A stretch of 17,025 nucleotides of DNA, taken from assembly GCA_019058295.1 (NCBI GenBank), contig JAHPZI010000011.1, positions 1-17,025 on the forward strand. Reading direction: 5' to 3'. Numbering within the stretch: the first letter of the stretch is position 1; every line of letters begins with the position of its first letter. Below the pieces are notes generated by a model, which worked only from the letters and a program-made list of their open reading frames with translations, was not told where the DNA came from and searched no databases. Positions 1 through 2,267 of the stretch are shown here, one piece after another. The position numbers and the translations under genes are program-made. The stretch comes from Promethearchaeota archaeon (GTDB lineage: Archaea; Asgardarchaeota; Lokiarchaeia; Sigyniarchaeales; SOKP01).

Positions 1-609
1 ATAACTCTCTTAAGGTAGCCAAATGCCTTGTCTGGTAAGTTCAGACGTGCATGAACGGTCCAACGTCCTCCCTATTGTCCCAGCCTTCTGACGATTGAAA
101 TCACACTCCGGCGAACGGTCCGGAGAAGCCCAACGGGACGAGAAGACCCCGTGGAGTTTTACTGCAGCCTGTTGTTGCGGTTTTGAACTGGATACAGAGT
201 GTAGTCGGGAGCGTAGATGCTATCATTTCGGTGGTAGCGGAGCAACTTTGGAATACCGGCTTTCCTTTTTGAAATCGCTAACGGCGTGAAAAGCGTCGGA
301 CACCCGCAGGTGGGCAGTTTGGCTGGGGCGGCTCACTCCAGAAAAAATATCTGGAGTAACCAATGGTCAGCTCAAGCGGGTCAGGAATCCGCTGAAGAGT
401 TTAAGAGCAAAAGCTGGCCTGACTGGATTCTGATCACCAAGGAATCCTGAGGCGAAAGCCTGGTCTAGCGATCCTCTATTGTGCTCATGTGGCTTGTAGA
501 GGTGATAGAAAAATTACCCCGGGGGTAACAGAGTTGTCACGAGTAAGAGCTCATATCGACCTCGTGGCTTGCTTCCTCGATGTCGGCTCTTCCTATCCTG
601 GGAGCGCAC

Positions 610-640
610 ATATCATTTCCGTGTATTGGAAATGAGCGCA
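610..640 (+). other. ~31-nt insertion in the 23S H91 loop (mini-intron or expansion segment)
   Basis: 43 nt lie between CCTGGG (597-602) and CCCAAGGG (646-653), versus 12 nt in E. coli. Contains a perfect 8-bp hairpin TCATTTCC (613-620)/GGAAATGA (628-635). Exact borders are ambiguous because of the GAGCGCA repeat at 602-608 and 634-640. Confidence 0.8.
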
Positions 641-673
641 AAACTCCCAAGGGTGGGGCTGTACGCCCATTAA

Positions 674-716
<43 letters not shown>

Positions 717-894
717 ATTCTATCTGTTGGGCTTGTTGGAAGACTGAGGGTAAGGGAAAATCAGTACGAGAGGAACATTTTGCCGGCGCCTCTGGTGTAC
801 CGGTTGTCTGACAAGGCATTGCCGGGCAGCTACGCGCTAACGGATAAGTGCTGAAAGCATCTAAGCACGAAGCCGGACCCGAAAATAGTCTTCC

Positions 895-1086
895 ACTCCT
901 TTCTCAAATTGTTTGATTGATTTACTGGGATATTTTGGTTGGCTGGATTGATAAGGCATCCTGTGTAAGCCAGAGGTCAATCTAAAAGTTTTTAAAAAGA
1001 AACAAAAAAAGTCATAATCGGAATGGTCGGTGAGTTGGTTGACGTGCGTGGGGGCTGGTGACAGCAACCGCAGAGAAGGGACGAGT
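895..1086 (+). other. Supersized expansion segment ES39 (H98 region) of 23S rRNA
   Basis: About 190 nt between the conserved CCCGAAAATAGTCTTCC and the resumed core GCACCCATAAAAGATGGGGTTG. Closed by CCTTTCTC (898-905)/GAGAAGGG (1073-1080), with internal stems. Confidence 0.85.
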
Positions 1087-1292
1087 GCACCCATAAAAGA
1101 TGGGGTTGGTGAGACGGGGGTGTACGTGCCGAGCTTTCGGGCGAGGTATTTAGCCCGCCGTTCTCAATAGCACGAGTGTTTGGTGTTGAAAGAGGACTCG
1201 TGGTTCAGGCTTAGAGTTTATGGGTTTTAAAAGTGGTGTTGGTAGTTAAGTATTATAGTTGGTAAGTAAAAGGGTAGGGTGTGTTCCTGGAG

Positions 1293-2267
1293 TTAATTTT
1301 TTTTCTTTAATATATTCAAATAAATTAAGCTTAGAAGAACTCCAATGCTAATGGGATATACTACGGAAAATGTTACTAATGCACCATGCCAAGGGAGTCC
1401 TGCATGGAAGATATATGCAAAATATAGCAGAATTAAACCAGGCAGATATGAGTCTGTTTTTCTCGTGAGATAACATAACAAAAAGCCGAAGATTATAAAG
1501 GTTAGAACAAAACCCCAGGTATGCCAAGGATAACATAAGCCAAAAAGCATACTCACGATAGCATAAGCATAAATAGGTTTAATTTTACTTAAAAATAGTT
1601 TCAGTCCATATTTAAAAAAGAAAGTACACATCGCCCATAATTGTACTAATTTTATAATAAAGAAAAAAAAATACATCTTTGGCTCGAAAAAAGAGCAGCA
1701 GTGCCAAAGACAAGAAATCAAACCATACCCGAAAGCGATTATAATCATAAAAATAGAAATTTCTTTTATGTTATCTGTTGATGTAGCTAAATCTTCTTTT
1801 CTAAAATGAAATATTTTCTGAAGAAGCAATGGTGATAAACCAAGAAGAAATAGACTTAAAATTGATGGAAGGAATAATGGTCCCATGCCAAGAAATCCCT
1901 CTGGATCCCACCAATGATATCCTATCACAAGATTGACAATAAAAAACACAGCTGCTATAATAAAAAACATGATTATTTCCTTTTTTTCAACTTCTCTCTC
2001 GTGTAAAGATTTATTTTCCCATCCTAACACAATTGGTAAGGTGAATGCTATTATTAATATTCCCAAAATAGCAAGAAATCTCATTGAAATTTCGCCCCCC
2101 AGCTCATGTACACCTTCCATCCAAGTCCTTCCGTTAATTGGGGGCTCACCAACAACTTCTAACGATAAAAATTCTAGTAGAGTTAAGGGCAAGACCAAAA
2201 TAAGTATAATTAAAGAAATAATTAAACCTACCAGTAAATAAGTAAGGATCTTATCATCTTTATTCAT
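1293..2267 (-). CDS. Polytopic membrane protein with a C-terminal CPBP/Abi (type II CAAX protease)-like fold lacking canonical catalytic residues
   Basis: 324-aa ORF with many hydrophobic segments. The C-terminal pattern SMLFGLCY...FGFLLCYLTRKTDSYLPGLIL follows the CPBP scaffold (S-x-LFG-x-x-H ... G-x-x-L-x-Y-x-x-x-KT-x-S), but EExxxR and both His are absent. Confidence 0.6.
   Translation of the reverse strand: MNKDDKILTYLLVGLIISLIILILVLPLTLLEFLSLEVVGEPPINGRTWMEGVHELGGEISMRFLAILGILIIAFTLPIVLGWENKSLHEREVEKKEIIMFFIIAAVFFIVNLVIGYHWWDPEGFLGMGPLFLPSILSLFLLGLSPLLLQKIFHFRKEDLATSTDNIKEISIFMIIIAFGYGLISCLWHCCSFFEPKMYFFFFIIKLVQLWAMCTFFFKYGLKLFLSKIKPIYAYAIVSMLFGLCYPWHTWGFVLTFIIFGFLLCYLTRKTDSYLPGLILLYFAYIFHAGLPWHGALVTFSVVYPISIGVLLSLIYLNILKKKN

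Follow-up and report, generated by a model that had tools for sequence, protein, structure and literature searches.

The H91 Insert and its Structure

The window, the stretch of 17,025 nucleotides analyzed here, opens on a contig whose start falls inside a 23S rRNA gene. Its first 1187 nucleotides are the 3' third of the archaeal gene, matching model positions 2019-2987 (cmscan, Rfam RF02540, 856.5 bits). A profile search with RF02540 over the organism's own genome returned no match despite this cmscan score, which is ascribed to the sensitivity of the search with a truncated gene. Near the 3' end of the gene, window positions 895-1086 hold about 190 extra nt in the ES39 region.

The initial annotation placed an insertion in the loop of 23S helix 91 (H91) with a set of stems, bulges and a repeat, and every element is found where it was drawn. 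GGGAG (600-604) and CTCCC (644-648) form the outer stem, CGC (605-607) and GCG (636-638) the central helix as drawn, and 613-620 and 628-635 a perfect 8-bp inner hairpin. The drawn bulges are ACATA (608-612) and CAAAA (639-643), and the direct repeat GAGCGCA stands at 602-608 and 634-640, around the insert. Minimum free energy (MFE) folding of 594-654 reproduces this drawing at -25.3 kcal/mol (z = -5.2; none of 200 shuffles reached this stability), with the GGGAG/CTCCC stem, a GCGC helix of 3-4 bp, 5-nt bulges and an inner hairpin of 8-9 bp. A cmscan comparison with the Rfam LSU_rRNA_archaea model bears out the insertion, giving 34 nt in the H91 loop versus 3 in the model. By our own alignment to the E. 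coli sequence, the site presumably lies between E. coli positions 2534 and 2535.

Four independent assemblies, G001, G003, G007 and G019, carry the same H91 insert, which rules out misassembly. A group I or group II intron was also considered and rejected, since LSU rRNA is the sole Rfam match in the window and 30 nt is far below the size that such introns require. A search for a second copy in the organism's own genome found none, only chance 11-13-mers, and the idea of a mobile repeat was dropped. Coordinates of the insert, and of the related inserts described below, are collected in Table 1.

Table 1. Features of the H91 insert in the window and further inserts in 23S genes of relatives
Feature	Position	Strand	Basis or remark
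23S rRNA gene, 3' third	1..1187	+	Rfam RF02540, 856.5 bits
Exon helix h, 5' strand, native H91 stem (GGGAG, with C605 facing A643)	600..605	+	600-604 pair with 644-648
Central helix, exonic 5' strand GCAC, first four bases of the mature loop	606..609	+	pairs with 636-639 in the 3-4-3 register
5' bulge AUA, predicted cut after U611	610..612	+	positions 1-2 conserved as in intron-less loops (A/C, then U); position 3 variable
Predicted 30-nt BHB mini-intron	612..641	+	product as in uninserted G010, G267, L090, L099; 613-642 equivalent
Intron hairpin h', stem 613-620 / 628-635, loop 621-627	613..635	+	MFE fold; compensatory changes
Central helix, intronic 3' strand GCGC	636..639	+	G-Y-G-Y in 30/30 variants, but imposed by the pattern
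3' bulge AAA, predicted cut after A641	640..642	+	position 2 variable; position 3 invariant A, predicted exonic
Exon helix h, 3' strand (A643 and CUCCC)	643..648	+	pairs with 600-604
G020 insert, 32 nt, H89 region	L017:1625-1656	-	strict script
G001 insert, 29 nt, window-14 equivalent	L002:2394-2422	-	strict script
G001 compound insert, 125 nt, with a 31-nt 3' unit between CCCCGGG and GGUAACAG	L002 ~1761-1885	-	3' unit: strict script
G007 BHB mini-introns, ~30 nt	L005:1146-1175, L005:675-704		other 23S sites
G003 BHB mini-intron, ~30 nt	L007:704-733		another 23S site
H93 ORF-less inserts between CGUCGUGAG and ACAGG	L005:1734-1866, L007:1725-1848		~window 704 equivalent
H93 ORF-less inserts between CGUCGUGAG and ACAGG	L017:1385-1504, L011:1295-1503	-	~window 704 equivalent

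Two Registers and the Predicted Product

The exon sequence GCGCAC and the 3' end of the insert, GYGC, can form the central helix in two registers that lie 2 nt apart. The register of the MFE fold (604-607:636-639, GCGC:GCGC) has 5-nt bulges. [quoted passage not shown] The non-canonical 5-nt bulges described previously are thus a property of the MFE register, whereas the register shifted by 2 nt has canonical 3-nt bulges at the cost of one mismatch. In the window the 3-4-3 register is 2-4 kcal/mol less stable than the 5-4-5 register (-21.3 versus -23.1 to -25.3). The insert of the congener G007 ends in GUGC; here the central helix is fully paired, and MFE folding directly yields the 3-4-3 form. 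The motif is flanked by a helix h of 5 bp (600-604/644-648) and a helix h' of 8 bp, the latter abutting the bulge and the central helix.

Under the canonical cut rule, each strand is cut behind the second base of its bulge. In the 3-4-3 register this removes 612-641 (30 nt; equivalently 613-642), and the predicted product, GGGAGCGCACAU joined to AACUCCC, is identical to the uninserted sequences of G010, G267, L090 and L099; the uninserted H91 of G010 reads GGGAGCGCACATAACTCCC. The insert in L032 (GCAC CUU ... GUGU AUA) yields by the same rule the loop core GCACCUAAC, as in uninserted G013 and G023, although the H91 stems differ. Applied to the 5-4-5 drawing, the canonical rule gives a loop that is 2 nt too short, and the relatives' sequence is recovered from this drawing only if the two strands are cut at unequal distances past the helix, 4 and 2 bases (or 5 and 3). 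Removal of 610-640 (31 nt), proposed earlier as restoring the usual loop, leaves a product one base shorter than the loop of intron-less relatives. In shuffles of the 30 nt, a minimal fit arose in 213 of 200,000. A strict script demanding a 4-of-4 central helix does not call the window motif, because of the A·C mismatch.

Variation among Loki-Type Inserts

A Loki-type set of 30 distinct inserts was assembled from relatives, survey contigs and 12 metagenome contigs. All 30 parse as GGNNNC, GCAY, 3 nt, a hairpin of 21-31 nt, GYGY, 3 nt and A-NNN-CC, with the parsing patterns presetting the central-helix letters H5 and H3, so that independent evidence comes from the bulges, the inner hairpin and the product test only. 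The corresponding predicted introns are 28-38 nt long. The first and last inner bases pair in 30/30 variants, with five pair types, and the neighboring hairpin bases, which the pattern leaves unconstrained, vary freely.

Evidence for the flanking helices includes double-sided changes in a MAFFT alignment of the 30 variants, at 6/6 pairs of the inner helix and at two of the five pairs of the exon stem (G-C/A-U). Paired cells amount to 89%; shuffles reach 72%, and sliding the partners against each other lowers the value to 33-56%. The central helix has no double-sided changes in either register, and because its 5' strand is invariant exon, covariation cannot choose between the two. In the 3-4-3 register the central helix is 81% paired, with A·C in 23/30 variants, the window included; in the remaining 7/30, G007 among them, the equivalent of A608·C637 is A-U and the central helix is perfect. 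In the 5-4-5 register (GCGC:GYGC) the central helix is paired in every one of the 30 variants (100%). Pair counts alone therefore favor the 5-4-5 register, the one drawn in the initial annotation. The 3-4-3 register is favored by the product test, by the symmetry of its cuts and by the exon-like conservation of 610-611.

Distribution in the Phylum

The survey of H91 in Asgard 23S genes that had been suggested earlier was run on 400 genomes of the phylum. An inserted H91 is present in 22 of them, all belonging to family f1, and an archaeal uninserted H91 in about 47, a few extra matches being bacterial contaminant contigs. Within family f1, the insert is found in 22/38 genomes with an assembled H91. 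Counting only these genomes, H91 is inserted throughout genera g1 (4), g11 (9), g4 (1) and g6 (1) and uninserted throughout g8 (4), g9 (2), g5 (1) and g12 (1); g2 (6 inserted, 6 uninserted) and g3 (1 inserted, 2 uninserted) have both. Insert length in the phylum is all-or-none, either 0 or 28-38 nt with no intermediates, and wherever the insert is absent in the sampled genomes, the GG and CC anchors of H91 are separated by 18-19 nt. The sister family f2, including single-contig genomes of 4.4 and 6.0 Mb, has the usual hexaloop without an insert.

A DNA search of 40 related genomes with extraction of H91 likewise separates inserted from uninserted groups. The congeners with an assembled H91 are all inserted at the same place, with 30 nt in G001, 31 nt in G003 and 38 nt in G007. 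The G001 insert is near-identical to that of the window, and the inner sequences of G003 and G007 are unrelated to it. G019, from another genus, carries a 30-nt H91 insert almost identical to the window's, and H91 is plain in representatives of other f1 genera (G010, G013, G016, G017, G020 and G023). Exact presence or absence among congeners fits the gain or loss of an intron, unlike the behavior of expansion segments.

Two matches raise questions of assignment. A 23S fragment in genus g11 (L003, G019:C22) is 99% identical to window 480-780, intron included, which suggests either binning problems with rRNA contigs or very shallow genus limits. The contig L043 (JBHLQA010000164.1) carries the NCBI label Odinarchaeota and has a Loki-family H91 with the intron; it corresponds to G206 in family f1, and a label or binning issue is likely.

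A scan of metagenome contigs gave 12 inserted and 2 uninserted H91 contigs. It yielded no pair of spliced and unspliced sequences, and no metagenome contig in it is near-identical to the window. A search for RNA-derived assemblies by the exact product of four spurious ORFs overlapping the rRNA gave no match.

The Same Site in Other Archaea

A wider survey took one genome per prokaryotic species and looked for H91 with 11-41 extra bases between strongly conserved anchors. It returned 55 contigs, of which 7 are bacterial and the rest are archaeal MAGs or SAGs. The archaeal contigs include about 22 from Promethearchaeota, others from DPANN (Woesearchaeota, Nanoarchaeota and Naiadarchaeum), six from Methanosarcinales, two from Thermoproteota and one from Sulfolobales. 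The bacterial contigs (L056, L058, L059, L060, L063, L066 and L082) contain N-runs or H91-H92 tandem duplications and look like assembly artefacts in public MAGs; they were set aside.

In the DPANN, Methanosarcinales, Thermoproteota and Sulfolobales MAGs, 22 distinct inserts share the layout GCAG, AAN or CAA, hairpin, CUGY and NNG, and are positioned after the same loop base as the Loki-type inserts. Four more archaeal inserts fit by way of one central-helix mismatch or wobble pairs, bringing the non-Asgard total to 26. Between 22 and 41 extra bases are present at H91 in these other phyla. The predicted non-Asgard product is a standard hexaloop helix, such as GGCCGU-GCAGAA-GCGGCC. Column entropies in the non-Asgard set are 0.57, 0 and 1.77 across the 5' bulge and 1.33, 1.29 and 0 across the 3' bulge, so that entropy jumps precisely at the canonical cut sites. 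The bulge columns of the Loki-type set have the same conservation trend, which is softer because that set is younger. The description of H91 as an unusual insertion site holds for the literature searched and fails for the sequence data, where 22/38 family-f1 genomes and at least 26 further distinct inserts occupy it.

Further Inserts in 23S Genes of Relatives

The 23S genes of relatives contain additional inserts of about 30 nt at core sites. A strict script, requiring four central-helix pairs, 3-nt bulges and both flanking helices, confirmed three of these sites as 3-4-3 with a product equal to the window's uninterrupted sequence, and strict canonical status is claimed only for these three (Table 1). 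A 30-nt insert of G007 inside a core motif, between GACCCCGUGG and AGUUUUAC, obeys the cut rule when read by hand and fails the strict script because of a weak exon helix. Four relatives have longer ORF-less inserts, of 120-209 nt, in H93; read by hand, these too follow the rule, with an exon helix that is imperfect or weak. The script missed the hand-read motifs at this H93 site and at the equivalent of window position 154 in G007, where exon helices are imperfect. The window's own 23S fragment contains the H91 insert only, without any of the sister inserts. Several sister sites belong to the peptidyl-transferase core, in which a retained insert is scarcely conceivable, and family f1 is accordingly predicted to splice 23S introns of about 30 nt.

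One of the G007 introns (L005:1146-1175) has hairpin arms, CGGAATGA and TCATTCCG, that resemble the arms of window 613-635, TCATTTCC and GGAAATGA, in swapped order. The likeness may be fortuitous, or it may point to a shared element that has been circularly permuted.

Splicing Enzymes and tRNA Introns

The organism's own genome encodes two EndA paralogues of 201 amino acids, each with PF01974 and PF02778, at L030:1168-1773 (+, contig G000:C1) and L031:1426-2031 (-, contig G000:C26). In one of them the Tyr/His/Lys triad is intact, and this protein most resembles chain B of the A. pernix enzyme (3p1z_B, 3ajv_B); the entries 3p1z and 3ajv are heterotetramers in which B is the catalytic subunit. 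The other paralogue has Ser aligned at the catalytic His. [quoted passage not shown] Asgard EndA has been reported as a broad-specificity enzyme of this type, and (alpha-beta)2 EndA, like the epsilon2 type, cuts relaxed motifs (PMC5829648; bioRxiv 10.64898/2026.10.13.758758). A search for the ligase RtcB found none in the organism's own genome, which is 79% complete, and found it in 8/9 congeners.

Many scattered tRNA genes of the same genome contain introns of 13-54 nt. Separately, an array of 27 intron-less tRNA genes lies within 3 kb at G000:C22:30303-33335 (aragorn), with scattered tRNAs elsewhere mostly having introns. The array could be a tRNA array of a mobile element or virus, or the contig could be a contaminant.

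Proposed Mechanism and Alternatives

The initial annotation left open whether the insert is a mini-intron or an expansion segment, and the comparative evidence favors the intron. With a probability of roughly 80%, the H91 insert is a BHB mini-intron that is removed from the RNA by cuts after 611 and 641, or equivalently after 612 and 642; we infer the splicing, including cleavage, ligation and circularization, from sequence comparison. In the pre-rRNA, a 4-bp central helix with one A·C mismatch would join the loop bases GCAC (606-609) to GCGC (636-639) at the intron's 3' end. This helix would be flanked by the bulges AUA (610-612) and AAA (640-642), with the H91 stem outside and the intron hairpin inside. 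The two-subunit EndA would then cut after the second base of each bulge, RtcB would join the exons to restore the 7-nt loop GCACAUA of intron-less relatives, and a 30-nt ORF-less intron would be released, probably as a circle.

Alternatively, the 30 nt may be kept in mature 23S rRNA as a micro-expansion segment that extends H91 near the sarcin-ricin loop and the factor-binding site, the former loop bases persisting as the two internal bulges. Several observations are in line with retention: the MFE fold is one continuous, stable extended hairpin, both bulges are loop-like in sequence (ACAUA and AUAAC), and the insert is fixed in g1 (4/4) and g11 (9/9), in 13/13 genomes with H91 assembled. Large expansion segments are, moreover, known in Asgard rRNAs (PMC7594248). 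The H91 loop base-pairs with that of H89 through its tip and contacts the sarcin-ricin loop on its other face (PMC3614586), contacts that would make a retained 30-nt hairpin awkward. Retention is also at odds with the all-or-none rather than graded length, with the 18-19 nt spacing of the GG and CC anchors throughout the sampled archaea that lack the insert, and with the exact match between the predicted splice product and uninserted congeneric genomes. The 3' end of the insert appears selected to pair with the loop bases and so form the BHB motif, the conserved stretches end at the canonical cut sites, an effect clearest in the other phyla, and the same layout is repeated in four unrelated archaeal groups. 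Sister inserts of similar size occupy core sites that could hardly tolerate retention. Taken together, these observations make a retained segment unlikely.

A somewhat fainter prospect is that the insert is functional rather than passive. It may be a retained Asgard-specific extension by the sarcin-ricin loop, or its obligatory late removal may gate the docking of H91 onto H89 and the sarcin-ricin loop during 50S assembly, the competing registers (5-4-5 stable, 3-4-3 cleavable) acting as a switch. Either role would explain fixation in two genera.

Excision might instead occur at other sites or without ligation, through a 5-4-5 cut that leaves the loop 2 nt shorter (…GCGCAC joined to AACUCCC) or through fragmentation of 23S rRNA at H91. 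The greater stability of the 5-nt-bulge register and its pairing in 30/30 variants agree with the former, and the failure to find RtcB in the incomplete own genome agrees with the latter. Such a product would, however, not match the loop conserved throughout the intron-less relatives, and 610-611 would become part of the intron despite their exon-like conservation. The asymmetric cuts needed in the 5-4-5 register are ill-suited to a symmetric enzyme dimer, and the presence of RtcB in 8/9 congeners argues against a lack of ligation. These outcomes are very improbable. An assembly or binning artefact, suggested by the N-runs and tandem duplications among bacterial matches of the same length scan, has a negligible chance of being correct, since upward of 40 independent archaeal assemblies share the insert at an identical position and show compensatory changes.

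Relation to Known Systems

Short hairpin BHB introns in rRNA are already known, and the H91 insert most likely belongs among them. The short (<50 nt) BHB introns in 16S rRNA of Thermoproteales and Desulfurococcales are, like the predicted H91 intron, ORF-less single hairpins with a BHB motif at highly conserved rRNA positions, with sporadic presence and presumed processing by EndA (Jay & Inskeep 2015, PMC4496867). Unlike these introns, the H91 insert lies in 23S rRNA, in the H91 loop, and in a Loki-type family of Asgard archaea rather than in Thermoproteota; it also has an A·C mismatch and a competing register, with no neighboring homing-endonuclease intron seen in the window.

Pre-tRNA BHB introns at position 37/38 and the relaxed forms hBHBh', HBh' and hBH (PMC5829648) share with the shifted register of the H91 insert the 3-4-3 geometry and bulges 3' of the central helix. 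As predicted for H91, the intron's 3' end finds its pairing partner in the loop of the 5' exon. The two also agree in their expected enzymes and are of similar size, as judged from the tRNA introns of the organism's own genome. The H91 substrate differs in being an rRNA hairpin loop without a tRNA body, not an anticodon loop. Small ORF-less BHB introns in conserved 23S domains of Staphylothermus marinus were reportedly described by Kjems and Garrett in 1991. These are said to be about twice the length of the H91 insert, at other positions, in a cultured crenarchaeon and with RNA evidence. The supersized expansion segments ES9 and ES39 of Asgard 23S rRNA resemble the H91 insert as extra rRNA of the Asgard lineage (Penev et al. 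2020, PMC7594248). They are retained, transcribed and graded in length at recognized variable sites, whereas the H91 insert is all-or-none and BHB-shaped in a length-invariant loop.

Searches for published accounts of an H91 or L2534 intron, of Asgard rRNA introns and of 23S mini-introns, with subscription journals and the CRW intron tables outside their scope, found none for this site. In the literature searched, the H91 site, its recurrence across phyla, and the combination of mismatch and register competition in the Loki family appear to be undescribed.

Significance

If the insert is spliced, mature 23S rRNA lacks 22-41 nt that the gene contains at H91, both in family f1 and in numerous MAGs of DPANN, Methanosarcinales and Thermoproteota. 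Such an excess in the gene affects rRNA alignments, structure models, probes and lists of "expansion segments". One loop position is occupied in several phyla by unrelated hairpins whose 3' ends are tuned to the local loop (GYGY facing GCAC, CUGY facing GCAG). This pattern suggests a settlement rule for BHB mini-introns, namely that a hairpin stem and four loop bases already provide half of the motif.

The natural A·C mismatch and the competition between registers offer a test set for the substrate range of the Asgard (alpha-beta)2 EndA. The closest prokaryotic relatives of eukaryotes would also have many tiny rRNA introns, present or absent within a genus, as material for the study of intron gain and loss.
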